DNA of 64,000 nucleotides from the NCBI GenBank assembly GCA_039829955.1, contig CP140035.1, positions 18,935-82,934 on the forward strand, in the 5' to 3' direction. The position numbers and the translations under genes were made by a program. Below, piece by piece: positions 11,860 to 61,768 of the stretch (positions within the stretch are counted from its first letter, which is position 1; every line of letters starts with the position of its first letter). The notes below the pieces were generated by a model, which was given only the letters and a program-made list of their open reading frames with translations, was not told where the DNA came from and ran no database searches. This DNA comes from Buchnera aphidicola (Nurudea shiraii). GTDB taxonomy: Bacteria > Pseudomonadota > Gammaproteobacteria > Enterobacterales > Enterobacteriaceae.

Positions 11860-12723
11860 TTATTCAATATTTTGACTTTGTTCTCTAATTTGTTCAATTA
11901 ATACTTTAATTTCTATTACTGATGAATGAATATCGAAATTTGAAGATTTGGAAGATAATGTATTAATTTCTCGATTTAGTTCTTGCATAATAAAATCTAA
12001 TTTTCTTCCGATAGGTTTATTGTTATCTAATATGGAAAAAGTTTTTAAAATATGCATATCTATTCTGTCTAATTCTTCTGAAATGTCAGTTTTTTGTATT
12101 ATAAAAAATAATTCTTGATTTAGTCTATTTTGATCAATATCAATTTTTAATTCTTCTATTTTTTCTAAAATTCTTTTTTTTTGATGGTGTTTTATTTTAG
12201 TAATATTACTTCTTATAATATTTATATTATGTTTTATAAAAAATAGTTTTTCTTCTATTAGTTTTTTAAGGTGATTACCTTCGTTTTTTCTAAAGTTTAA
12301 TAGTTTCTTAATGGTTTTTTGAAATAATTTTAAAATTTCAGAAGATATTTTATCTATATTGCTATTTTTTAAATTAATTACTCCTGGCCAATTCAATAAA
12401 TCGATAATGTTTATTATTCCATCGGGTGCTTTTAATTTTATATATTCGATATACTTCATTAGTTGTTTAATTAAAGTTATATTAATAGAGTGAGTAGAGA
12501 TAGTATATTTATTCATTTCAAATTGTAAACTACATTCTATTTTACCTCTATTTAAGTTAGATCTAATATATTGACGTAATAAAGGTTCTAATTCTCTAAA
12601 TTCTTCTGACAATCTAAAATTTGTTTCTAAATAACGATGATTAAAAGAACGAATTTCGAAAGTAGCACATCCCCATGTTTTACTAATTTTTCCTTTTGCA
12701 TATCCTGTCATACTATATGTCAC
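11860..12723 (-). CDS. yicC: YicC-family protein
   Basis: (V)TYSMTGYAKGKISKTWGCATFEIRSFNHRYLETNFRLSEEFRELEP matches E. coli YicC MIRSMTAYARREIKGEWGSATWEMRSVNQRYLETYFRLPEQFRSLEP. GTG start at 12723 with GGAG 7 nt upstream. Confidence 0.9.
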   Translation of the reverse strand: MTYSMTGYAKGKISKTWGCATFEIRSFNHRYLETNFRLSEEFRELEPLLRQYIRSNLNRGKIECSLQFEMNKYTISTHSINITLIKQLMKYIEYIKLKAPDGIINIIDLLNWPGVINLKNSNIDKISSEILKLFQKTIKKLLNFRKNEGNHLKKLIEEKLFFIKHNINIIRSNITKIKHHQKKRILEKIEELKIDIDQNRLNQELFFIIQKTDISEELDRIDMHILKTFSILDNNKPIGRKLDFIMQELNREINTLSSKSSNFDIHSSVIEIKVLIEQIREQSQNIE

Positions 12724-28546: not shown

Positions 28547-29557
28547 TTAAAGAATATTATTTTTTCCGATAATATTAATTTCTTTTTCAAGAAAAATATT
28601 AAATTTTTCGTATACTTTTTTTTGTATTATTTTTGCCAAAATTAGTATGTTTTGAGAAGTACAATTATATTCGTTTACGAGTATTAATGCTTGTTTATCG
28701 TGTACTTTAGCTCCTCCAATGCGATATCCCTTTAATTGACATTTTTCAATTAACCATCCTGCTGAAATTTTTACATTTTCATTATTTTCAGGATAGTTAG
28801 GTACGTTTTTATATTTACATAAAAGTTTTTTAGCATGGCTTTTTTTAATGATTGGATTTTTAAAGAAACTTCCAGCGTGTCCTACATTTTTTAAATTAGG
28901 AAATTTTTTATTTCTAATTTTTTTTATAAAATTAAAAATTTCAAGTGCGGTGATATTTTTGTTATTAGTTTGTTGTAAACGTAGATGAATTACATTAGGA
29001 GACCATTTTTTTTTAAGTTTAATTCCTACAGATAAAATTATATAATTATGATCGTGTGTATTCTTAAAAATACTATTTCTGTATTCAAACATGCAATATT
29101 TTGATTGTATTTTTGTTATATTACAACTCGTTAAAGATAAAATTTCTACATAATCACATATATCTTTAAATTCTAATCCATATGCTCCTATGTTTTGAAT
29201 TGGAGCTGCCCCTACTGTTCCAGGAATAAAGGCTAAGTTTTCTAACCCATAAATTCCTAATTTTAATGTATATGTGACTAAGTTATGCCATTTTACTCCT
29301 CCTTTAGCATTTATTAACCAATATTCACGATTTTCTAAAATTTTTATTCCTGAAATTTTATTAATTGCTACAATCCCATTATAATTTTTAGAAAATAATG
29401 TGTTACTTCCTTCGCCTAATAATATAAAAGAAGACTTTTTTTTACACATGTTCCATGTTTTAATAAGAACACGTATGTTGCTTACTATAACTATCTTTTT
29501 CGCGTATACATCAATTTTAAATGTATGGAATTTTTTTAACGATTGATTTGCATGCAT
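28547..29557 (-). CDS. murB: UDP-N-acetylenolpyruvoylglucosamine reductase
   Basis: 336 aa, FAD-binding MurB fold (LKKFHTF..., ILLGEGSNTLF, GAAPIQNIGAYG, AGSFFKNP, SAGWLIEKCQLKGYRIGGAKVHDKQALILVN). Confidence 0.94.
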   Translation of the reverse strand: MHANQSLKKFHTFKIDVYAKKIVIVSNIRVLIKTWNMCKKKSSFILLGEGSNTLFSKNYNGIVAINKISGIKILENREYWLINAKGGVKWHNLVTYTLKLGIYGLENLAFIPGTVGAAPIQNIGAYGLEFKDICDYVEILSLTSCNITKIQSKYCMFEYRNSIFKNTHDHNYIILSVGIKLKKKWSPNVIHLRLQQTNNKNITALEIFNFIKKIRNKKFPNLKNVGHAGSFFKNPIIKKSHAKKLLCKYKNVPNYPENNENVKISAGWLIEKCQLKGYRIGGAKVHDKQALILVNEYNCTSQNILILAKIIQKKVYEKFNIFLEKEINIIGKNNIL

Positions 29558-46875: not shown

Positions 46876-48897
46876 ATGATATTTATTAAAAGTTATATAT
46901 TAAAATTACGAGAAAAAATTCGTTATTATAATTATTTGTATTATTCTTTTAGTTCGCAAAAAATTTCTGATTGCAGATACGATTATTTAATGAAAAAACT
47001 TCGTTATTTGGAAAATAAATATAAACATTTTTTATTTATGAAAGATTCTCCAACTTTTCAAGTAGGTTCTTTGTGTGCTTCTGATTTAAAAACATATAAA
47101 CATATTACCCCTATGTTATCTTTAAACCATGTATTTTCTATTCGAGATTATTTAAATTTTTATAAAAAAACAAAAAAAGTTTTGAAAAAACAAATAATAT
47201 GTTTCTGTTGTGAATTAAAGTTAGATGGATTAGCTTTAAATTTAGTTTATGAAAAAGGAAAATTAGTCATAGCTATGACAAGAGGAAATGGAATTTTAGG
47301 TGAAAATGTTACAGATAATGTTAAAAAAATTTTTTCTATTCCTAAAAAATTAGTTGGAAAAGATGTACCTGAAAAAATAGAAGTACGAGGAGAAGTTTTT
47401 ATGTTAAAAAACGATTTCATAAGATTAAATAATATAGCAGTTCGTAGTCAAATGAAAAAGTTTTCTAATACTAGAAATGCTTCTTCTGGATTATTGCGTC
47501 AAAAAAATTTAAAAAATATTTTTATGAATAATTTAATGTTTTGTTGCTATGGATATGGATATTGTTCTGGTAATGACGATATTTTAAATCATTATGATAA
47601 ATTACAAAAATTACATAGTTGGGGTCTTCCGATTAGTGGATATAACTGCGTATTTAATTCCAATTATGATATTTTAAATTTTTATAATAAAATTGAAAGT
47701 ATACGAAGTTTTTTAAACTTTAATATTGATGGAATAGTTATTAAGGTGAATTCTATTCCTTTGCAAAATAAGTTGGGTTATACAAGAAGAGCTCCAGTTT
47801 GGGCAATTGCATTGAAATTTTTTGATCAAGAAAAAACATCTAAAATATTAAAAATAGAATATAAAATTGGAAGAACAGGAGTGATTACTCCTATAGCAGT
47901 AGTAGATCCTATTTGTATATCTGGAGTAATAATAAGGAGGATTTCTTTATATAATTTTCATGAAATTAAAAAGTTAGGAATTCGATTAGGAGATATTGTC
48001 AAGATTAAACGTTCCGGGGATGTTATTCCTAAAATTATAAGTGTTGTACGTAATTGTTCTAATGATGTTCAAGATATTGTTTTTCCTCATTTATGTCCGT
48101 CTTGTCGATCTAAATTGAAAATATATGATAAACGTATTAAAATTCGTTGTATAAATAATTTAAAATGCAAAGAACAACTTAAGAAAACTTTATATTATTT
48201 TTGTTCTAAATCTGGATTAAATATTTTGGGATTAGGTTTTAAAACTGTTAGTAAGTTAGTAAACAAAAATTACGTTAAAAATTTCTCGGATTTTTTTAAT
48301 CTTCATGAAAATGCTTTAATTACATTAGATGAAGTTGGAAAAAAAAATGCATCTAATATTATTGATGCTATTCATAATTCTAAAAACATTACTTTTTCTA
48401 AGTTCTTATGTGCTCTTGGAATTGATGAAATAGGAACGGTAAAGTCAGATATTCTTTCTAAACATTTTTTGTCTTTAAGCAATTTGATGAATGCAACGTT
48501 TAGTGAAATTTGTTCGTTAAAAGGAATCGGTTTTATAGCATCAAGGAATATATTTAATTTTATAAATGATGAAAGTAATAAGAACGTTATTTTGAATTTA
48601 TCAAAAAGTTTAAATATATCTTCAAGTTACGATAATGTTAGTTATGTCAGAAAAAGTTCCAATCCATTTTTTAAGAAAAAAATTGTTTTTAGTGGAACGT
48701 TAAATAAGTTTTCTCGTTCCCAAGCTGTGGATATAATAAAAGAGTTAGGTGGAAACGTTATGTCCAATGTTTCGATAAAAACCGATTATATTGTTATTGG
48801 TAAAAACCCTGGATCTAAATTCTTCAAATCTAATATTTTAAATATAAAAGTAATATTAGAACAAAATTTTCTAGAGATAATCAAAAATTATTTGTAA
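46876..48897 (+). CDS. ligA: NAD-dependent DNA ligase
   Basis: 673 aa; adenylation motif CELKLDGLA, four-Cys zinc finger (CPSCRSKL...CINNLKC), HhH and C-terminal BRCT regions, collinear with E. coli LigA (671 aa). Confidence 0.95.
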   Translation: MIFIKSYILKLREKIRYYNYLYYSFSSQKISDCRYDYLMKKLRYLENKYKHFLFMKDSPTFQVGSLCASDLKTYKHITPMLSLNHVFSIRDYLNFYKKTKKVLKKQIICFCCELKLDGLALNLVYEKGKLVIAMTRGNGILGENVTDNVKKIFSIPKKLVGKDVPEKIEVRGEVFMLKNDFIRLNNIAVRSQMKKFSNTRNASSGLLRQKNLKNIFMNNLMFCCYGYGYCSGNDDILNHYDKLQKLHSWGLPISGYNCVFNSNYDILNFYNKIESIRSFLNFNIDGIVIKVNSIPLQNKLGYTRRAPVWAIALKFFDQEKTSKILKIEYKIGRTGVITPIAVVDPICISGVIIRRISLYNFHEIKKLGIRLGDIVKIKRSGDVIPKIISVVRNCSNDVQDIVFPHLCPSCRSKLKIYDKRIKIRCINNLKCKEQLKKTLYYFCSKSGLNILGLGFKTVSKLVNKNYVKNFSDFFNLHENALITLDEVGKKNASNIIDAIHNSKNITFSKFLCALGIDEIGTVKSDILSKHFLSLSNLMNATFSEICSLKGIGFIASRNIFNFINDESNKNVILNLSKSLNISSSYDNVSYVRKSSNPFFKKKIVFSGTLNKFSRSQAVDIIKELGGNVMSNVSIKTDYIVIGKNPGSKFFKSNILNIKVILEQNFLEIIKNYL

Positions 48898-51671: not shown

Positions 51672-53342
51672 ATGAATGTTGATTTGAAAAATAGTTCGAA
51701 TTTACAGAATAAAAATAAAAAAAGTCATCTTTTATCTTATTTTACATCTAATCTTCGTATTGTTATTATAATTTTTTCAATATCTTTAATAATACTATTA
51801 TATGTATTTTTTTTTAAATCTTCTAATTATCATGCTCTTTACAATAATTTATCTAAAGAGGACGAACGATTAATTATTTCTCAATTAAAAATAATGCATG
51901 TTCCTTTTAAATTTGACAATGATCATAGTATTCTTATGGTTCCAGAAGAAAAATTACAAGAAGTTAGAGTGAATTTATCTGAACAAGGACTTCCAAAAAG
52001 CAATAGTATTGGATTTGAACTATTAGATCAAGAAAAATTTGGAATTAGTCAATTTAATGAGCAAATAAACTATCAGAGAGCATTAGAAGGAGAGTTGGCT
52101 AGAAGTATACAAAAATTAAATAATATTAAAACAGCAAGAGTACATATAGCTTTTCCTAAACCTTCTTTGTTTGTACAGGATAAGAAGTTTCCTTCGGCTT
52201 CTATCATTATAGAGGTAAAACAAGATTCAGATATTGAAGTGGATCAAATAAATGCTATTTTGCATATGGTATCTTCAAGTATATCTGGATTGTCAATTGA
52301 AAATATTTCTATTATTGATCAAAAAGGGAAATTATTAAATAGTAGTGATTCGTTAAATAGTAATGTTGATAATACGAAGCTAAAATATTATGATTTAATT
52401 GAAGAACATTATAAACAGAGAATTGAAAACATTTTAATACCTTTATTAGGTTTAAATAATGTACATGCTCAAGTTACTGCACAAATTAATTTTGATAAGA
52501 AAGAAAGTACAGAAGAAAAATATAAACCAAATTATGCTAATGATAGCAAGTCTATTCGGTCTCATCAGAGTACTAAAAATATAGAATTAAATGAGAAATA
52601 TACAGATAATTCTATTTCTCCTAATTCTTTTTCTGGAAAGTTAAAGATTCTATCGGAGAAATTGTCGTCTGATTCTTATAATTCAGATAATTTTTCTTCT
52701 AAATCTTCAACACTGAAGAATGAATCTAGTAAAAATGTTAATAATTCATTAACATTACCAAAATCAAGTACTAATCAAGACTATATTGTTAATTATGAAT
52801 TAGATCGTACTATTACACGCACAAAATTACAAATGGGAGATATAAAAAGATTGTCAGTTGCTGTAGTAATAAATTATGTTCGTAATAAGAATGGAGATTG
52901 GGTATCTCTAAGTTCGAATCAGATAAAAAAAATAGAAAATTTAATTCAAGCAGCGATTGGATTTTCTTCAAAACGAGGAGACTTTATTTCTATAGATAGT
53001 GCGCTATTTGTGAAACCATCTATTTATGTTCATGAAGATGTTTCTTTTTGGAAACATTCTTTATTGTTAAATAATACATTGGAATACGGACTGATATTAG
53101 TTTTTTTAATAATGTTGTTATTATTATATAAAATATTTTTTTCCAAAAAGAATTTTCAAAAGAACAATTTACATAATGCTCATGATAAGAATGTATTCAA
53201 TAATGATAAGAAAAAATTTGATATAGAACAAGATAGTTTTAAAAAAATATTAATGGAGAAAGGGTTCGGAGATATTTCTACAAGAGATACACATGCTATA
53301 GCTATGATTATTAAAAAGTGGATGAGTGGTGATAAAAAATGA
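51672..53342 (+). CDS. fliF: Flagellar MS-ring protein FliF
   Basis: 556 aa; N-terminal TM segment, conserved QINYQRALEGELARSI..., ARVHIAFPK, second TM near the C-terminus. Divergent from fliE. Confidence 0.94.
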   Translation: MNVDLKNSSNLQNKNKKSHLLSYFTSNLRIVIIIFSISLIILLYVFFFKSSNYHALYNNLSKEDERLIISQLKIMHVPFKFDNDHSILMVPEEKLQEVRVNLSEQGLPKSNSIGFELLDQEKFGISQFNEQINYQRALEGELARSIQKLNNIKTARVHIAFPKPSLFVQDKKFPSASIIIEVKQDSDIEVDQINAILHMVSSSISGLSIENISIIDQKGKLLNSSDSLNSNVDNTKLKYYDLIEEHYKQRIENILIPLLGLNNVHAQVTAQINFDKKESTEEKYKPNYANDSKSIRSHQSTKNIELNEKYTDNSISPNSFSGKLKILSEKLSSDSYNSDNFSSKSSTLKNESSKNVNNSLTLPKSSTNQDYIVNYELDRTITRTKLQMGDIKRLSVAVVINYVRNKNGDWVSLSSNQIKKIENLIQAAIGFSSKRGDFISIDSALFVKPSIYVHEDVSFWKHSLLLNNTLEYGLILVFLIMLLLLYKIFFSKKNFQKNNLHNAHDKNVFNNDKKKFDIEQDSFKKILMEKGFGDISTRDTHAIAMIIKKWMSGDKK

Positions 53343-54292
53343 TGATTTTAAATGGTATTGAAAAAAGTGCTATTTTGTTGATTTCTATTGGAATAAATCA
53401 GGCAGTTAAAATATTAAATCAGTTATCTCATTCAGAAGTTCAATCCCTTATTAAATGTATGTTTAATTTGGGAAATGTTTCTTGTTTAGCTATTGATCAA
53501 GTGTTGTTTGAATTTAAAAAAAAATTTTCTTCTAATAATTCTACTACTTTAATAGATAAAAATTATGTCGCTTCTTTATCTAAAAAGGTATTAGGAGACA
53601 AAAATACAACAATGTTATTTAACAAGATCAAAGATAACAAAGATATTGTTTATGGGATTAAGCAATTAAATGCGATTGATTCTAAAGATATTTTTAAATT
53701 ACTCAAAGATGAACATCCTCAGATCATTACCACAATATTAATATATTTAAATAGAAATAAATCATCAGAAGTTTTATCTTATCTAGAAAAGTCATTAAGT
53801 TTTAATATTATTTCTAGAATAGTTCAATTTTCTGGTTTAACTAGATCAGGAGAGCATGAATTGGTTAAAGTTATTAATTATTTGTTAAATAATTATCAAA
53901 AAGACATATATAATAAAAAAGGGACTGAAATAGTTGTAGAATTATTAAAATTAATGACATATGATCAAGAAAAACGTATTATTAGTGAAATCGAAAAGTA
54001 TAATAAAAAATTATCAGATTTTATAAAGTCTAAAACTTTATCATTTGAAGACATTAAAAATTTTAATGATTCTTGTATTCAACATTTAGTTAAACATGCT
54101 ACTCTTGATGAATTGTTAATAGCTATGAGTACATCAAGTGAATTATTAAGAGAAAAAATTTTTAAAAATGTTTCTAAGAAAGATGCTGATTATTTACGTA
54201 ATAATCTTGCTAAAAAAAATTCTATATTACTTAATGATGTTAAAAAAATTCAAAATAATCTATTAGACATAATTAAAGGTTCTTTAAGATAA
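53339..54292 (+). CDS. fliG: Flagellar motor switch protein FliG
   Basis: 317 aa; GIEKSAILLISIG matches E. coli GTDKSVILLMTIG. ATGA overlap with the fliF stop. Confidence 0.92.
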   Translation: MMILNGIEKSAILLISIGINQAVKILNQLSHSEVQSLIKCMFNLGNVSCLAIDQVLFEFKKKFSSNNSTTLIDKNYVASLSKKVLGDKNTTMLFNKIKDNKDIVYGIKQLNAIDSKDIFKLLKDEHPQIITTILIYLNRNKSSEVLSYLEKSLSFNIISRIVQFSGLTRSGEHELVKVINYLLNNYQKDIYNKKGTEIVVELLKLMTYDQEKRIISEIEKYNKKLSDFIKSKTLSFEDIKNFNDSCIQHLVKHATLDELLIAMSTSSELLREKIFKNVSKKDADYLRNNLAKKNSILLNDVKKIQNNLLDIIKGSLR

Positions 54293-54311: not shown

Positions 54312-55003
54312 ATGTATCAAAAAATGTCAAAATCCACTTGGAAGAGATGGTATCCTAAAGAAGCTCAAAAAAAAGATAAAAAAATAATAGACGATATTTC
54401 AAATAAAGATGATAGGAAATATAATAAAAAAAAATTCAAGAAAAAAGAACTAATTTAATTACTGATGTAAACAAAAAAAATAATTTTGAAATTAATAATA
54501 TTGATTATGAAAATGGTTTTCAAAAAGGAGAAAAAGAAGGATTTTTAGCAGGATTTAATAAAGCGCTATTAGAGTTTAACAAAAAAAATAGTTTGTTATT
54601 GGATCAAATAAATAATCTTGTTTTAAGTTTTGATAAAGCATTAACAAAATTAGATGGTGTTATTTCTTCTAATTTAGCATTTTTAGTGATGAGTATTTCT
54701 AAAAAAATTATAGAAAGTACGTCATGTTATGATGATAAAAGTCTACTAAAAAAAATAAAAAAGTTATTTAAAGATGAAAAAATTGTATTTAGCAAACCTA
54801 AATTATTTATTAATCCTTATGATAAAGAAATAGTTGAAGAATATTTTAAAACAATTTTTTTAAAGTATGGGTGGACAATTTTTTATGATAAAAAAGTATC
54901 TAAAGGAGGTTTTATAATATATTCGAAAAATACTATATTGGATTCAACTATGTCAGGGCGTTGGATCGAGTTGTGTAAATTGGTTTTTAAAAAGGAAGAA
55001 TGA
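54312..55003 (+). pseudogene. fliH: Flagellar export protein FliH, interrupted by a frameshift in an A9 tract
   Basis: The ATG 54312 frame (AAGAGG SD 5 nt upstream) gives MYQKMSKSTWKRWYPKE... and stops at 54456-54458. The downstream frame (the ORF-track 54593-55003 piece) is open back to 54428. The two frames meet in A9 (54426-54434). One extra A gives ~230 aa, collinear with E. coli FliH (WKTW motif, GYQEGLAQG-like GFQKGEKEGFLAGF, C-terminal domain). The stop overlaps the fliI ATG (ATGA). Confidence 0.85.
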
Positions 55004-56364
55004 TGAACTTACGATTAGAAAAATGGTTAGAAAAGACATTAATTTATGAAAAAAAAGCAACTCATCTTCCTAGTATAGTACAATATGGACGTTTAGTAGG
55101 ATTCAATGGATCTATTTTAGAGGTCAGTGGTTTACAGTTATCTATTGGATCGATTTGTTATATAGAAGTAGATTTAGGAAGTCATGATATCGATGAAGTA
55201 GAAGCTGAAGTAGTCGGATTTAAAAATAACATATTGCTTTTAATGCCTTTAGAAAATATATCTAATGTTATTTCGGGATCTAGAGTAAGACCAAAATTAA
55301 TAAATGGTGTGAATTATATTGTTAATACATTACCGATATATCAAGGATTATTAGGAAGAGTATTGGATAGTTTAGGAAGGCCATTAGATAATTTAGATAT
55401 AATTAAAGAACATAAAAAAAGTTTATCGCATTCTATAGTAAATCCTTTACATAGGGCTCCTATTGTGGATGTTTTGGACACTGGAGTTCGTGCTATTAAT
55501 GCATTATTAACTATTGGTAGAGGTCAAAGAATTGGATTGTTTTCTAGTTCTGGATTAGGAAAAAGTGTGCTTCTTGGTATGATGACGAAATACACTGAAG
55601 CTGACGTAGTTATATTAAGTTTAATAGGAGAACGTAGTCGAGAGGTAAAAGAATTTATTGAGAGTGTTCTTACTCGAGATGCGCTTAAAAAATCAGTTGT
55701 TGTTGCATCTTCTGCTGAATTTTCTCCTTTATTACAAGTCAAAGGAGCTAACTATGCTGTTCGTATTTCAGAATATTTTCGAGACAAGAATTATCATGTT
55801 TTATTAATAATGGATTCTTTAACACGTTATGCTATGGCTTACAGAGAAATAGCATTATCTGTGGGAGAATTACCTGCTTCTAAGGGTTATCCTCCTTCTG
55901 TTTTTTCTAGGATGTCTTCTCTAATAGAAAGATCAGGAAATGGAAAAAAGAAAGGAGGATCTATTACAGCTTTTTATACAGTTTTAACTGAAGAAGAAGA
56001 AAAATATGATCCTATTGCAGATTCAGCGCGATCTATTTTGGATGGGCACATTATATTATCTCGAGAATATGCCGAATCTGGTCATTATCCTGCTATAAAT
56101 ATTGAAGCTTCTATTAGTCGAGTTATGTCTAACGTTGTGGATTCTGTTCATGATTCTAAAGCTCGTTATTTAAAAAAGTTATTATCATGTTATCAGCGCA
56201 ATCGTGATTTAATTAGTGTAGGTGCTTATGTTTCAGGTACTAATTCTGAATTAGATATAGCTATATCTCTATTACCTAAAATAGAAAAATTTTTACAACA
56301 AGGTATGCATGAAAAAAGTACTTTTTCTGAATCTAAAAAAGATTTGTATGCAATTTTTAGTTAA
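55000..56364 (+). CDS. fliI: Flagellum-specific ATPase FliI
   Basis: 454 aa; Walker A SSSGLGKSVLLGMM, Walker B VLLIMDSLTRYA, F1-ATPase-like fold. Confidence 0.96.
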   Translation: MMNLRLEKWLEKTLIYEKKATHLPSIVQYGRLVGFNGSILEVSGLQLSIGSICYIEVDLGSHDIDEVEAEVVGFKNNILLLMPLENISNVISGSRVRPKLINGVNYIVNTLPIYQGLLGRVLDSLGRPLDNLDIIKEHKKSLSHSIVNPLHRAPIVDVLDTGVRAINALLTIGRGQRIGLFSSSGLGKSVLLGMMTKYTEADVVILSLIGERSREVKEFIESVLTRDALKKSVVVASSAEFSPLLQVKGANYAVRISEYFRDKNYHVLLIMDSLTRYAMAYREIALSVGELPASKGYPPSVFSRMSSLIERSGNGKKKGGSITAFYTVLTEEEEKYDPIADSARSILDGHIILSREYAESGHYPAINIEASISRVMSNVVDSVHDSKARYLKKLLSCYQRNRDLISVGAYVSGTNSELDIAISLLPKIEKFLQQGMHEKSTFSESKKDLYAIFS

Positions 56365-56381
56365 ATAAAGGATCTTAGAAT

Positions 56382-56824
56382 ATGTTCAAAAATAAAAAAT
56401 TTGTTGATTTGTTAGAAAATATTGATAAAAAAAAAATTTACAATTATCGATGATTTTAGAAAAAATCATTTTAAATAAAAAAAAAGTTCAGGAACAGATA
56501 GATTTATTACTAAAATACAAGGATGAATATTTTGTTAAATTAAATCTTAAGATGTGTTCTGGAATTTCCGGTTTTGAACTAAAAAATTATGATAATTTTA
56601 TTAGTTCTTTGGTACATGGAATTAAGAATCAAAAAAAGATTATAGAAAGATATAAACAGCAATATAGTGAATATTTTAATTTATGGAGGAAAAATCAATG
56701 TAGATTAAAGATGTGGAATATAATGCACTTAAAAATTTTAAAACATAATTTAAAATTGATTCAATTAGATGAACAAATACAGCTTGATGAACATGTTCAA
56801 AAATCTTTTTTTAAGAAAAGGTAA
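56382..56824 (+). CDS. fliJ: Flagellar export chaperone FliJ; 5' end out of frame at an A10 tract
   Basis: The 124-aa ORF (56450-56824) aligns with E. coli FliJ from residue ~33 (VQEQIDLLLKYKDEY vs AEEQLKMLIDYQNEY). ATG 56382 (AAGGA upstream) opens a 23-codon frame ending at TGA 56451-56453. One extra A in A10 (56427-56436) fuses them into 147 aa, the E. coli length. Confidence 0.8.
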
Positions 56825-56836
56825 TTTATTACTATT

Positions 56837-58017
56837 ATGTTAAAAATTATAAGTATAGTTACAAATACTTTATTTTGTAAAAATAAAAGTTCTTTTTTTA
56901 GATTAGATTTAAAAAAAAAACTAATTTTTCTGAAAGATTCTTAAAAAAAAATATTGTTCTCGATAGGATAAATGTTTTAAAATATACATCGAGACACGAG
57001 AAAAAAGTTAAAGATTTTCTAGGTGTTTTTTTGAATGTTTATAAAATTAGAAAACGGAAAGACAATTTCCAAAGTGACAATGTTTTATTATATGATTGTG
57101 TTTTTTATAAGGATTATTTTTGTTCTTTTAAAAGAATTATAAAAAATGATAATACAAAAAGTTTTTTTTCTGGTTTAAAAGCATACAATGATATAAAAAA
57201 ACATGTTGGTAACTTGTTTAAAAAAGATGTAATAAAATTTAATAAAATAGCTGTTAATATATTAAAAAAATGTTCTAATCTTTTTCTGATGTCTAAAAAT
57301 TTATATAGGTCCATAGTATATAGCTTTTTGAAAATAGCCACTTTTTCAAGCTATACTATTGATTGTTTAAAATCAAAAAATGATTTTAGTCAATTTTTAT
57401 TGAATTTAAAACTTTCAAAACTTTTAAAAAATTTTTTTAAAAAAAAAATATGTTGTGATGAAGAAACTGGTGATATATTTAACTTTTTTCCAAAAATATG
57501 TTGTTCTACATATCTAAAACAAAATATTCCTAAGCAAAATGAAAAATTTTTTTTATTTCATCATAAAGATGCAAATTTAATTCAAGATAGTTGGATATAC
57601 AATATTCATAAAAAATTATTGACATTTTTTTTTAAAAGTAAAAAAATTATAGAGTTATTTTTTAATTCACAGTATTTAGGATCATTATTTATACGATTAA
57701 AAGTAAAACGAAATCAATCAATTAAATTAGATTTAGTTTCTGATAATAAAATTTTAAAAAAAATGTTAGAATCTGATGTTTCTAACTTTAAAAATACTGT
57801 CTCTAAGTCCGGACTTAAGTTTAAAGATATTACTATTCAGACGAAAAATTTCAAAAAACATACTGTTTCAAAAAATAATTATGATTTTTATAATAGAGCT
57901 GTAAATCTTAATAATTTTTCTAAATTTAAACAACAAAATGATAATTTTTGTAGATTATTATTGTCAGAGTTTTGTTCTCCTATCATAAGTAAAGAAAGTA
58001 TCGATATTTATATTTAA
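56837..58017 (+). CDS. fliK: Flagellar hook-length control protein FliK; probable 5' extension out of frame at an A10 tract
   Basis: The ORF 57031-58017 has only a TTG start and its frame is open back to 56902. C-terminal domain (YLGSLFIRLKVKRNQSIKLDLVSDN...LESDVSNFKNTVSKSGLKF) resembles E. coli FliK (DLGEVQISLKVDDNQAQIQMVSPH...LEAALPVLRTQLAESGIQL). ATG 56837 (MLKIISIVT..., compare E. coli MIRLAPLIT) joins it if A10 (56911-56920) gains one A, giving 393 aa. Confidence 0.75.
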
Positions 58018-58158
58018 TAAGAAATAATGTGTCGTATGTATTATAATATAATTTATGTGCTTTACTTATTGCAACAATTTATTGTTAGTTTAATTTGAAT
58101 TAATTTTTTATATATTTTAATATAATTTGAGAGATATATTTATTTTTAGGGTGTTTTG

Positions 58159-59103
58159 ATGATAAGTAATGTTATTTTAAAAACTAAAAAAAACGATATA
58201 GCCTATAATAATATAAATAAATTTTTTAAAGTTCATGTTTATGATTCTGGATTAGATTATTATACTATGTATCAAATAAAAGAATCTTTAAAAGACATTT
58301 CTATTTTTTTTTCAAAACAAGTTCTTTTAGATTTTTTAGATATTTTAGATGTTAAATTTGATATTAAATTGTATAGCATTCAATTAAAAAAATATAATTG
58401 TGAACAAGATTATTTCAAAGATTCAACGTTGGTAAATATTGGTAATCTTTCTACTTTTTCAGAGATAGGGATAATAGGATTTTCTGACAAGATCATAGAA
58501 TCAATAATAGATGTTCTTTTTGGGGGTAAAAATATACTTCAAGATTGTAGTAATAATTCTTATACATTAAAAAAGTATGATGTAAAAATTATAGAGAAGA
58601 TTATAGACATAATTAAAAAATCATATTGTATGTCTTGGAAGAAAAAACATGGGATAGATATAGAATTTTCTAATTTTCGTCTAGTAGAAAAAGCACATCT
58701 TGATAGTATTATTCCAAATAATAGCATTTTTCTATTTACTATTTTTAAAATAAAATGTGGAAATAAATTAGGATTTTTAAATATTAGTTTGTCGTTTTCG
58801 TTTATTAAAAAATTTAAAAATGAATTGTTAGAAAAGCATAAAAATAAGATTTTTTTTGAAAAAAAGCATGTAGATAAAATTTCATTAAAAATGATATATA
58901 ATTTAAAAATAAATTTAGATGTTAAGTTAGTTGGTCTTTCTCTTTTATTATCTAAAATTTCATTTTTAAAAATTGGTGATATTATTTTTATAAATACTCC
59001 AGAAAATGCTTTAGCATTTTCTAATAATATACCTGTAATATCAGGGAAATATAAAATGTATAAAAATAAATACGTTTTTTTTGTTAAGAATTTTTTAATT
59101 TAA
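58159..59103 (+). CDS. fliM: Flagellar motor switch protein FliM
   Basis: 314 aa from ATG 58159 (the ORF track starts at TTG 58156). VDVLFGG-type motif (IDVLFGGKN) and a C-terminal SpoA-like region (KIGDIIFINTPENALAFSNNIPVISGKY). No N-terminal LSQAEIDALL-type CheY-binding peptide. Confidence 0.88.
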   Translation: MISNVILKTKKNDIAYNNINKFFKVHVYDSGLDYYTMYQIKESLKDISIFFSKQVLLDFLDILDVKFDIKLYSIQLKKYNCEQDYFKDSTLVNIGNLSTFSEIGIIGFSDKIIESIIDVLFGGKNILQDCSNNSYTLKKYDVKIIEKIIDIIKKSYCMSWKKKHGIDIEFSNFRLVEKAHLDSIIPNNSIFLFTIFKIKCGNKLGFLNISLSFSFIKKFKNELLEKHKNKIFFEKKHVDKISLKMIYNLKINLDVKLVGLSLLLSKISFLKIGDIIFINTPENALAFSNNIPVISGKYKMYKNKYVFFVKNFLI

Positions 59104-59125
59104 GATTATTGTAGGAATATAACTT

Positions 59126-59520
59126 ATGAATAATAAAAAAAGTATAACTGGTACTAATAATGTAGATAATGTGGACATGTTAGAAGACATACATTTGAGT
59201 AAAAAAAAAATATTAAAGATGAAAATAATACTATGAATTTAGAAAAACCTATACAAAATTCAAATAATTTAAACTTTGTTATCGATATTCCAGTAGATGT
59301 TACTATTGAGTTAGGTAAGATAGAGGTATCAATTAAAGATCTTTTAAATTTAAGTAAAGGTTCTATATTATCTTTAAATAAATATTCAGGAGAACCGTTA
59401 AATATATTAGTAAACAAATTTATTATTGCTAAAGGAGAATTAGTTATTGTAGAAGAAAGATATGGAATTCGTATTACTAGTATTGTTGATAATTCGCATG
59501 TTTTAGATATTACGAATTAA
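59126..59520 (+). CDS. fliN: Flagellar motor switch protein FliN; 5' end out of frame at an A10 tract
   Basis: The 95-aa ORF (59233-59520) holds the conserved SpoA domain (IDIPVDVTIELGKIEVSIKDLLNLSKGSILSLNKYSGEPLNILVNKFIIAKGELVIVEERYGIRIT). ATG 59126 (AGGA 9 nt upstream) opens a frame that stops at TGA 59234-59236. One extra A in A10 (59201-59210) fuses them into 131 aa (E. coli 137). Confidence 0.85.
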
Positions 59521-59548: not shown

Positions 59549-59842
59549 ATGGAAAATATGTTTCAATTTACTTTTAAGAATGCAATTTTTTCAAAAATGG
59601 GAGTTCTTTTTTTTAAAATAATTGTAATTTTATTAATATTAATTTGGATATTAAGAAAAATTGGTATTGAAAAAAAAATTATAAATAATACATCTATAAA
59701 AATTTTAGAAAAAGTGTCAATTGGATCTGGAGAAAGCATCGTCATTGTTAATTTAAAAGAAATTAGATTAGTAGTCGGTGTAACTTCAAAAAATATTTCT
59801 CTTTTGTATACGTTGCCTCCGGTAAAAAATGAGAAATATTAG
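59549..59842 (+). CDS. fliO: Flagellar biosynthesis protein FliO
   Basis: 97 aa with one TM segment. IKILEKVSIGSGESIVIVNLKEIRLVVGVTSKNISLLYTLPP matches E. coli FliO LKISASASLGARERVVVVDVEDARLVLGVTAGQINLLHKLPP. Confidence 0.8.
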   Translation: MENMFQFTFKNAIFSKMGVLFFKIIVILLILIWILRKIGIEKKIINNTSIKILEKVSIGSGESIVIVNLKEIRLVVGVTSKNISLLYTLPPVKNEKY

Positions 59843-59866
59843 TAAAAATTAAAATATTCATGATTA

Positions 59867-60631
59867 ATGTGGAAATTTATTAAATATTGTGAGACAAAAA
59901 TGATTTTTCGAATGATATTATTGTTTTTATTATTGTTTTCTCCTGTAGAAAGTGCAAATATTTCTAATTTTTCTATGCATTCTTTACAACATGAGGTAGA
60001 AAATTGGTCTCTTCCGTTACAAATGATGATTTTTTTAACATTGTTGACATTTATCACTCCTATTGTATTGATGATGACTAGTTTTTCTAGAATCATTATT
60101 GTGTTTAGTTTACTACGAAATGCTTTGGGAACTCCATATTCTCCTCCTAATCAAATTTTACTAGGTTTATCTTTATTTTTAACTTTTTTTATTATGGCTC
60201 CAGTATTTGATAAAATTTACCAAGATGCTTATTTACCATTTAGTGAAGATAAGATTAGTATTAGTTCAGCTCTGTCAAAAGGTATTCAACCTCTTCATGA
60301 ATTTATGATTAATCAGACTCGTACAAATGATTTGGCTTTTTTTTCAAAATTGGCTAATATTTCTAGCTTTTCAAGTAAAAGAGAAGTTCCAATGCGTGTT
60401 TTATTACCTTCTTTTGTTACTAGCGAATTAAAAACAGCTTTTCAAATTGGGTTTACTATTTTTATACCGTTTTTAATAATTGATCTAGTAGTAGCTAGTG
60501 TTCTTATGGCTTTAGGGATGATGATGGTACCTCCTTCAACAATATCATTACCTTTTAAGTTAATGCTATTTGTGTTAGTAGATGGATGGAAATTATTAAT
60601 TGCTTCTTTAACTCAAAGTTTTTTTCATTAA
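59867..60631 (+). CDS. fliP: Flagellar export apparatus protein FliP
   Basis: Highly similar to E. coli FliP ([45 protein letters not shown]..., [32 protein letters not shown]). Alternative start at ATG 59900. Confidence 0.95.
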
Positions 60632-60715
60632 ATTTAAATTTTAATAATTATATTTATAATATATAAAATAATTTTATATTTTTAAGATTTTATACATATT
60701 AAGTTAAGGAAATTT

Positions 60716-60985
60716 ATGACAGTAGAATCTGTAATGACTCTTTTTCAAGAAGCAATGAAAGTAGCTTTAATGCTTGCTTCTCCTTTATTGTTAACTGCAT
60801 TATGTAGTGGTTTAATTATTAGTATCTTACAAGCTGCTACCCAAATAAATGAACAAACTTTATCATTTATTCCTAAAATTATTACAGTTTTATTATCTAT
60901 CACAATTTTTGGTCCATGGATGCTTGCTTTAATCATAGATTATACTCGATCTTTGTTCAATAATTTATCTTTTATAACAAATTAA
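60716..60985 (+). CDS. fliQ: Flagellar export apparatus protein FliQ
   Basis: 89 aa (E. coli 89), two TM segments, ILQAATQINEQTLSFIPKI. Confidence 0.93.
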   Translation: MTVESVMTLFQEAMKVALMLASPLLLTALCSGLIISILQAATQINEQTLSFIPKIITVLLSITIFGPWMLALIIDYTRSLFNNLSFITN

Positions 60986-60988
60986 TTG

Positions 60989-61768
60989 ATGATAAATTTT
61001 AATGTTAATGATTTAATATTTACTTTTTATAATTTTTTATTTTTAGTAGTTCGCGTGTTATCTTTTGTTATTGTTGCTCCATTATTTGGAGATAGTTCTA
61101 TTCCTAAAAAAATTAAATTATTTTTTTCATTTGTTATTAGTTGGTGTTTTACATTTTTTGTTCCTATAACAAATTTAAATTTATTATCTATAGATGGGTT
61201 TTTAGTATTAATAGAGCAAATAATTATTGGTACTTCTTTAGGATTTATTGTGCAATTGATGTTTTCTACAATAAAGATATCTGGAGAAATTATAAGTTTT
61301 CAAATGGGTTTATCGTTTTCGTCTCTGATAGATTGGAATACTCATTCCAATATATCTGTTTTATCTCGTCTTCTTTATATGTTTTTGTTACTTTTGTTTT
61401 TAGAATTCAATGGTCATCTTTGGATGATATCGGTATTATTTGATGTATTTTTGAAAATTCCCATTCAAATAGTGGAGTTTGATTCAAGTTCATTTTTTAA
61501 AATTTTAATAATTTCAAAGTTTATATTCGTTGATGGTCTTATGCTAGTATTTCCAATGGTCATAATTCAGTTAATGTTAAATGTTTCTATGGGTATTTTA
61601 AACAGAATCGCTTCTCAAATTTCTATTTTTTCTGTTGGGTTTTCTTTAACTTTACTGATAGGAATGTATATTTTTTATTTATTCATTCCCATATTTCCTC
61701 TTATTTATAATGATATATTTAATCGTGTAGTATTTTCGTTATCTGTGTTTTTGAAGACATATCTATAA
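60989..61768 (+). CDS. fliR: Flagellar export apparatus protein FliR
   Basis: 259 aa polytopic membrane protein, immediately after fliQ (ATG 60989, or TTG 60986). Size and position match E. coli FliR (261 aa). Confidence 0.88.
   Translation: MINFNVNDLIFTFYNFLFLVVRVLSFVIVAPLFGDSSIPKKIKLFFSFVISWCFTFFVPITNLNLLSIDGFLVLIEQIIIGTSLGFIVQLMFSTIKISGEIISFQMGLSFSSLIDWNTHSNISVLSRLLYMFLLLLFLEFNGHLWMISVLFDVFLKIPIQIVEFDSSSFFKILIISKFIFVDGLMLVFPMVIIQLMLNVSMGILNRIASQISIFSVGFSLTLLIGMYIFYLFIPIFPLIYNDIFNRVVFSLSVFLKTYL

Follow-up and report, generated by a model that had tools for sequence, protein, structure and literature searches.

Poly(A) frame breaks in flagellar genes of Buchnera aphidicola from Nurudea shiraii: real one-base deficits in genes that are probably not all dead

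What becomes of a gene whose reading frame is broken by a single missing base in a run of adenines? This question is raised by a stretch of 64,000 nucleotides (nt) from the genome of Buchnera aphidicola (Nurudea shiraii) (contig CP140035.1 of GenBank assembly GCA_039829955.1, positions 18,935 to 82,934 of the forward strand; hereafter the window), in which rsmD and the flagellar genes fliH, fliJ, fliK and fliN are each split into two reading frames at a poly(A) tract. Such a break may be a sequencing error in an intact gene, a lesion in a dead gene, or a lesion in a gene that is still read across the break. For this locus, we consider it probable (about 0.68) that the breaks are real one-base deficits, that the genes are not all dead, and that the frame is regained inside the tract in a fraction of the product, with slippage of the RNA polymerase as the most likely route.

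We drew stop-to-stop frame maps of the window, which has a G+C content of 25%, and took a census of all its A or T runs of at least 8 bases, applying +1 and -1 edits to each. Exactly five poly(A) runs were found at which two long, abutting open frames are joined by one added A (or by the removal of two), and the census revealed no further gene-breaking poly(A) run of at least 8 bases in the window besides the tracts of rsmD, fliH, fliJ, fliK and fliN. The frame breaks of these five genes are therefore present in the sequence, just as a first-pass annotation, made from the letters alone, had described them in tracts of A9 to A11. At each of the five shifts, the two frames overlap by 25-43 nt and the tract lies inside the overlap; the position of a shift is known only to within this overlap, and the only cases in which an alignment with in-frame relatives puts the gap on the tract are fliJ and, as discussed below, ligA of the N. 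yanoniella symbiont. The chance that the downstream open reading frames (ORFs) stay open at random ranges from 2.5e-7 to 4e-22, and it is about 1e-8 for the 128 codons of fliJ at this base composition.

The four flagellar breaks lie on the plus strand within one operon. fliH (54312-55003) consists of 41 N-terminal codons, which include a W-x-K/R-W-Y-P motif, and 188 C-terminal codons with the PF02108 domain, and its A9 tract (54426-54434) falls within the frame-switch interval 54428-54458. In fliJ (56382-56824), the start codon and 15 further codons precede an A10 tract (56427-56436), which is followed by 128 codons with the PF02050 domain. fliK (56837-58017) is split into 28 and 364 codons, with an A10 tract (56911-56920) inside its frame-switch interval, and fliN (59126-59520) into 26 and 102 codons, with an A10 tract (59201-59210) within the interval 59203-59236 and the PF01052 domain in the C-terminal part. 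On the minus strand, rsmD (1997-2556), which according to its translation encodes the 16S rRNA m2G966 methyltransferase, is broken at an A11 tract (2320-2330; T11 on the plus strand) between the S-adenosylmethionine-binding motif DCFSGSG and the DPPF motif, so that 76 codons are separated from 106.

Once a single A is added, the products align collinearly with their families and with their relatives. The repaired FliH, FliN and FliK have 230, 131 and 393 residues, compared with 232, 129-130 and 390 in relatives with intact genes, and the repaired FliJ and RsmD have 147 and 186. FliH (PF02108, 92 bits), FliJ (PF02050, 58 bits) and FliN (PF01052, 78 bits) match their family profiles above the cutoffs, whereas the match of FliK to PF02120 (Flg_hook) is weak (26.2 bits) and stays below the cutoff of 29.8, so that the assignment of FliK relies on synteny and on tblastn comparison with relatives. 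For two of the proteins, the profiles run across the junction itself: repaired RsmD yields a single PF03602 match (residues 6-179) and 167.9 bits with the TIGR00095 equivalog (residues 4-179; cutoff 117.5), and the TIGR02473 alignment of FliJ begins at residue 11 and spans the repaired stretch, which reads ...LLENIDKKKNLQLSM...

For comparison, we obtained the fliE-fliR regions of related symbionts via their FliI and FliG homologues. The set comprises eight Melaphidina-type lineages, namely N. shiraii, N. yanoniella (two samples), Floraphis choui, the N. ibofushi type (CP140039, CP140041 and a Joint Genome Institute (JGI) metagenome), Schlechtendalia peitan, Meitanaphis elongallis and the two Logan assemblies L066 and L076, as well as Baizongia pistaciae and Chaetogeoica yunlongensis (NCBI and Logan assemblies) as outgroups. 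Automated flags at runs of at least 7 bases gave false positives at gene junctions (fliO/fliP) and masked the true frame at fliH of N. yanoniella; these cases were settled with frame maps and tblastn. The flagellar proteins are strikingly diverged within this aphid group, and FliG of the relatives is only 50-63% identical to the N. shiraii protein.

The most telling case is fliJ. Aligned with the two outgroups, which are in frame and have no homopolymer at this place, all eight Melaphidina-type lineages have a single gap column, which falls at the tract; the tract is A10 in seven of them and A9G, of equal total length, in S. peitan. As this break occurs in all eight lineages, on either side of the basal host split, which separates N. 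shiraii and N. yanoniella, as a sister lineage, from the rest of the Melaphidina (PMC6395032), it would be older than the crown of the clade, given a single origin. On that assumption, the alignment makes the break ancestral to all sampled Buchnera of Rhus gall aphids.

Throughout this time, both pieces of the gene appear to have been kept. The start codon, the 15 codons upstream of the tract and the 128 codons downstream are intact in all eight lineages, and the ratio of nonsynonymous to synonymous differences per site (pN/pS) of the downstream part, 0.31-0.43, is the same as that of the comparison gene gltX (0.35-0.43). It is likewise low immediately on either side of the break, with 0.32 in the 15 upstream codons and 0.26, in the shifted frame, in the first 14 codons past the tract. 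The shifted frame is closed at the very beginning of the tract by a TAA, formed from the T of a GAT codon (AGT in S. peitan) and the first two As, and no start codon was found between this TAA and the constrained codons of the shifted frame. Because the frame is closed there and no start codon precedes the constrained codons, translation must enter the shifted frame inside the A run, which argues from the sequence that fliJ is still expressed across its break. Frame recovery at the tract would then be the normal route to the 147-residue protein of the export apparatus. We consider the conjunction of a break that is kept across the basal host split with selection on both of its sides to be among the stronger comparative arguments that a frameshift can be compatible with function.

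The tracts of fliH and fliN tell a different but related story, since the alignments indicate that they toggle in and out of frame among the lineages while the coding sequence remains constrained. At the homologous fliH tract, S. peitan has A10 and is in frame, N. shiraii has A9 and is one base short, and F. choui has A11 and is one base too long; the N. yanoniella gene is broken at A10, that of L066 at a different tract of A11, and three other lineages are intact. In the lineages with a broken fliH, the upstream piece still carries the N-terminal W-x-K/R-W-Y-P motif. fliN is broken at A10 in N. shiraii, F. choui and L066, intact with A7-A9 in four other aligned lineages, and also intact in L076. 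As the three lineages with a broken fliN do not form a clade, the state of this gene would have changed several times. Past the breaks, fliH has a pN/pS of 0.35-0.53 and fliN one of 0.34-0.45.

Constraint is much weaker in fliK. The A10 tract at which the N. shiraii gene is broken is identical in N. yanoniella, and A3-A7 is found at the same position in those relatives whose fliK is not broken there. Across the set, five lineages carry a broken fliK, with the breaks at several tracts, and S. peitan, M. elongallis and Baizongia have an intact copy. Given the weak constraint, the fliK break may be a step toward loss, and plain decay is a serious alternative for this gene. In L076 (SRR32023170, 7760-8860 and 10215-10604), fliK is represented by weak tblastn fragments in two frames and is apparently degraded; the same assembly has no fliO called, an intact fliH and fliN, and a fliJ with the common A10 break. 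In the outgroup Chaetogeoica (L071 and L072, 11843-12000), fliK is apparently split into ORFs of 43 and 338 residues in different frames, with a T10 run at 11963-11972 between them.

Such breaks are not confined to dispensable genes. In both N. yanoniella genomes (L063 and L064), ligA, which encodes the NAD-dependent DNA ligase, is broken at an A10 tract (2263-2272) that needs one more A, and the alignment shows a single gap column in N. yanoniella shortly before the KxDG adenylation motif, whereas the gene is intact in N. shiraii (46876-48897 of the window) and in every other relative. Since ligA is essential, its broken state implies that some form of rescue operates in this clade. Essential genes are therefore not exempt, and the absence of breaks from housekeeping genes, to which the first-pass annotation had attached some weight, is not a general property of these genomes.

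Could the deficits nevertheless be products of sequencing or assembly, with long homopolymers under-called by one base and the genes truly intact? N. shiraii is represented by a single assembly, libraries made with the polymerase chain reaction are known to stutter toward shorter runs, and the same +1 change repairs all five breaks in the window, which the first-pass annotation had read as a possible sign of a platform that under-calls homopolymers. The genome, in whose source paper the terms pseudogene, frameshift and flagell- do not occur, was obtained from whole aphids with an Illumina NextSeq (2x150; TruSeq Nano) and assembled with SPAdes (PMC11188193), and thus not with 454, Ion Torrent or Nanopore, so that the technology, whose identification had been proposed as a check, speaks against this explanation. 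We compared runs of at least 8 bases between independent samples and assemblers (the two N. yanoniella samples, the NCBI and Logan assemblies of Chaetogeoica, and three assemblies of the N. ibofushi type including the JGI metagenome) and found the same length in 169 of 172 (52/54, 47/48, 35/35 and 35/35); at this discordance rate of 1.7%, at least five miscalls among 37 tracts would be expected with p = 4e-4. Eight other A10-A11 tracts in the N. shiraii assembly are in frame, including the A11 of rplJ, which argues against systematic under-calling. Homologous broken tracts recur in independently sequenced species, in Logan re-assemblies and in the JGI metagenome, three of the relatives' breaks need one base fewer rather than one more, and the fliJ tract of S. 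peitan keeps its length as A9G. Identical tract lengths in independently sequenced relatives had been named beforehand as a finding that would speak against an artefact, and fliJ provides it with A10 in seven lineages and A9G in one. On this comparison we regard an artefact as refuted for fliJ and as very unlikely for fliH, fliK, fliN and rsmD, and give it hardly any weight overall; the part of the earlier explanation that took the breaks for genomic states is well supported by the platform, the reproducible homopolymers and the broken tracts of relatives.

If the breaks are real, the genes may simply be young pseudogenes that yield no functional product and are not rescued. Buchnera lineages elsewhere have lost flagellar genes piecemeal (PMC3246468), and homopolymer indels account for 10-70% of disrupted Buchnera genes (PMC3164680). 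Nevertheless, we consider decay an unlikely explanation for the group as a whole, as it does not account for a clade-wide fliJ break with both pieces open and constrained, for the constraint downstream of the breaks in fliH and fliN, for downstream ORFs whose openness is so improbable by chance, or for the similar state of an essential gene such as ligA. It is less probable still that the genes are served by internal starts alone, with N-terminally truncated proteins as the products and the upstream mini-ORFs as mere remnants. NCBI annotates FliJ of N. shiraii as an intact protein of 124 residues from the ATG at 56450 (P0121), which hides the frameshift, and in fliN an in-frame ATG at 59233 precedes the entire PF01052 domain. 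At 56450-56453, the stop codon of a 23-codon fliJ mini-ORF overlaps the ATG of the downstream frame as ATGA; this overlap, an arrangement typical of translational coupling, is found in N. shiraii only. However, these ATGs are not conserved, and in fliJ the other lineages have Leu or Ile at this position. Furthermore, truncation would leave unexplained the purifying selection on the upstream mini-ORF and on the codons between the tract and the internal start of fliJ, the conservation of the FliH N-terminal motif in broken lineages, and the alignment of TIGR02473 across the FliJ junction. A stronger competitor, although we still think it improbable as the main route, is recovery in translation, by a -1 slip or by sliding of the ribosome on the run of Lys codons. 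Every tract contains a perfect tandem-slippage heptamer, A_AAA_AAA, in the upstream frame, a -1 shift there would give the same protein as an mRNA with one additional A, and compensation of indels by frameshifting has been discussed for organelles and endosymbionts (PMC5009743). However, we found no conserved structure downstream of fliJ, no Shine-Dalgarno-like element was seen in the sequence upstream of the tract, and in Buchnera and Blochmannia, experiments provide a precedent solely at the level of the transcript. A stimulatory RNA structure 3' of the fliJ tract was considered and rejected, as RNAalifold predicted 0 pairs and 0 kcal/mol over 74 nt in the eight species.

We therefore favor slippage during transcription, in the following form. 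In an A+T-rich genome poor in repair, replication slippage probably generates one-base deficits in poly(A) tracts; on the resulting template, the RNA polymerase would slip backwards on the T run and insert one extra A into a part of the mRNA. The ribosome may add to this by a -1 slip on A_AAA_AAA, with an identical protein as the outcome. We infer the mechanism and efficiency of slippage, as well as any effect on dosage, from published precedent. Several observations weigh against this interpretation. Slippage and full-length products at these genes rest on genome sequence and on precedent, and the circle sequencing (CirSeq) study of Buchnera LSR1 recorded no transcription error that restores a reading frame (PMC5574713), an observation that is also in line with decay. 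The pN/pS values are rough, since synonymous sites approach saturation (pS 0.4-0.6). The evolution of fliK is almost neutral (pN/pS 0.79-0.91), and the gene has several break sites in five lineages and is degraded in L076, all of which would also fit decay, although pN/pS is high in the intact fliM as well (0.60-0.74). The ATGs past the tracts of fliJ and fliN (56450 and 59233) could yield truncated N. shiraii proteins without any slippage, and the A9 state of fliH and the A11 state of rsmD were seen in the single N. shiraii sample only.

The concentration of breaks in the flagellar operon is an aspect that had already been pointed out in the first-pass annotation, with 3 of 4 flagellar tracts broken against 1 of 9 others at about 0.05. 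In our recount of tracts of at least 10 bases in the window, the flagellar fraction stands and the other becomes 1 of 8 (Fisher p = 0.067). The dnaC tract, listed there as an A10 (1650-1659), has nine bases (1650-1658), and the A11 of glmU is in frame as stated, but sits in the last few codons and is thus a weak control. With tracts of at least 9 bases, 4 of 10 are broken in flagellar genes and 1 of 27 elsewhere (p = 0.014), and per gene the fractions are 4 of 13 and 1 of 39 (p = 0.011), which amounts to a modest enrichment within the window. Across the eight lineages, 20 of 42 A runs of at least 9 bases are broken in fliH, fliJ, fliK and fliN, compared with 0 of 13 in other flagellar genes (p = 0.002, or 0.01 with fliJ counted once); these counts are of lineage states and not of independent events. 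The enrichment is partly a matter of opportunity, since fliF, fliP, fliQ and fliR have no A run of at least 9 bases in any of the eight lineages. Long A runs are very unevenly distributed along the operon and reach 1-2.8 per kb in fliH, fliJ, fliK and fliN of the eight lineages.

The direction of the breaks is similarly skewed. All five in the window need one more A (p = 0.06, which alone is not significant), and so do 12 of the 15 broken lineage states across the clade (p = 0.035). The statement that every break is repaired by one added A thus holds for the window but not for the clade, in which fliH and fliK of F. choui and fliK of the N. ibofushi type need one base fewer. An excess of this kind does not point to an artefact, because it is what transcription slippage with an insertion bias would predict: of the transcription errors recorded in Buchnera, 151 of 157 insertions lie in homopolymers, compared with 16 of 57 deletions (PMC5574713). 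A -1 ribosomal slip on A_AAA_AAA would likewise favor breaks that need +1.

How do these genes relate to known cases of frame recovery? The closest are the poly(A) frameshifts of Buchnera and Blochmannia described by Tamas et al. (2008), which, as far as they are summarized in later papers (PMC3164680, PMC5009743, PMC3017870), combine a one-base indel in a run of at least 9 As with an otherwise intact ORF and with conservation of the break across populations or species. For such genes, the fraction of corrected transcripts has been given as 12-50% (Tamas et al., 2008, as summarized in PMC5009743) and as about 30% (PMC3017870). As judged from the genomes compared here, the features of this class are found again: indels in tracts of at least 9 bases, open and collinear frames, purifying selection on fliJ, fliH and fliN, and conserved breaks, with that of fliJ in eight of eight lineages and neither of the two outgroups, the A10 of fliK also in N. 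yanoniella, and the broken A10 of fliN also in F. choui and L066. The Buchnera cases in those summaries concern cell-wall genes of the Rhopalosiphum padi symbiont, whereas here four breaks share a single flagellar operon in a symbiont of Fordini and are read from its genome sequence. According to the papers that cite it (PMC3017870, PMC4256274), the work of Wernegreen, Kauppinen and Degnan (2010) similarly describes a homopolymer frameshift that is kept between species in an undegraded gene, as fliJ is in the eight lineages, albeit in another host clade and another gene. In Blochmannia vafer, eight genes are frameshifted at homopolymers, including essential genes of information transfer (dnaX, dnaG, pth and others), and independent events and reversions have occurred at the same tract (PMC3017870). 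These findings are paralleled by ligA of N. yanoniella and by the toggling of fliH and fliN, although the B. vafer genome belongs to an ant symbiont and its breaks are spread over many functions instead of being concentrated in one operon.

Other parallels come from secretion systems. In Shigella flexneri, Spa13 and Spa33 are the injectisome counterparts of FliJ and FliN. Their genes and mxiA are in frame in the Shigella genome, and slippage lowers their output; here, by contrast, the genome is out of frame and any output would need slippage, so that the homology is one of the machines and not of the slippery sites. The A or T runs in mxiE, mxiA, spa13 and spa33 slip at 15-55% (Penno et al., 2005, 2006, as quoted in PMC4256274), and mxiE requires slippage for its full-length protein, as the genes described here would. 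Another secretion gene, tssM of Citrobacter rodentium and Yersinia, is interrupted at a poly(A) tract and rescued at about 20-25% (PMC4256274), but it belongs to a type VI system of free-living pathogens, and its short and long forms are both functional. Finally, the tracts resemble the -1 frameshift site of dnaX in having a zero-frame heptamer of the A_AAA_AAx type (A_AAA_AAA in this case). They differ in that no conserved stem-loop or pseudoknot accompanies the fliJ site and in that the shift truncates the protein in dnaX, whereas here it would complete it.

Against this background, the established picture of poly(A) frameshifts in endosymbionts is unchanged but comes to include another set of genes and another clade, and what appears to be new is an ancient, selectively maintained frameshift in fliJ. 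Its setting is the basal body of Buchnera, a machine without a filament whose function is still unproven. As a clean and deeply conserved natural case, fliJ offers a test bed for the reliance of a reduced genome on frame recovery. There is also a practical side, since gene callers render fliH, fliK and fliN as split or shortened genes, and comparisons of gene content among Buchnera strains will miscount them. The idea that the breaks throttle the dosage of FliH, FliJ, FliK and FliN is speculation at present. A bolder version, in which the A10 of fliJ has served as a selected, obligatory site that sets FliJ output since before the radiation, with the fliH, fliK and fliN tracts as heritable dosage dials, convergent with spa13 and spa33 of Shigella, is one that we find doubtful; the ordinary alternative is that the tracts are merely tolerated damage. 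The flagellar tracts also do not behave like phase-variable loci, as their lengths are identical in the two N. yanoniella samples and in the three N. ibofushi-type assemblies, and toggling was seen between species only in this comparison of assemblies.

The remaining genes of the operon in the window are intact, all on the plus strand: fliF and fliG (51672-54292) upstream of fliH, the ATPase gene fliI (55000-56364), fliM (58156-59103), and fliO, fliP, fliQ and fliR (59549-61768) downstream of fliN. In-frame tracts of similar length occur here as well, for example in a second A10 of fliK (57439-57448), which is kept as A9-A10 in relatives, and in the A10-A11 tracts that the relatives carry in fliM. 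Elsewhere in the window, an A8 run on the minus strand (28616-28623) is found 22 codons short of the end of a gene of 336 residues. The removal of one A would open a frame of 44 codons past the run, and the gene may thus have undergone a C-terminal frame change.

Some further observations concern the genomes used for comparison. The FliG sequences of CP140039, CP140041 and the JGI metagenome contig (L073, L074 and L075) do not differ from the one annotated for the Buchnera of 'Schlechtendalia chinensis' (XW81_00340), which fits an aphid phylogeny that groups N. ibofushi with Schlechtendalia. A 472-bp 'insertion' in the JGI contig proved to be merely a run of N. In the second N. yanoniella sample (CP140036, L064), the spacer between ptsH and ligA contains a T45 run (1139-1183), a T81 run (1601-1681) and a 25-nt unit repeated in tandem about eight times, all of which are absent in the first sample and could be either an assembly artefact or the mark of a hypervariable spacer.

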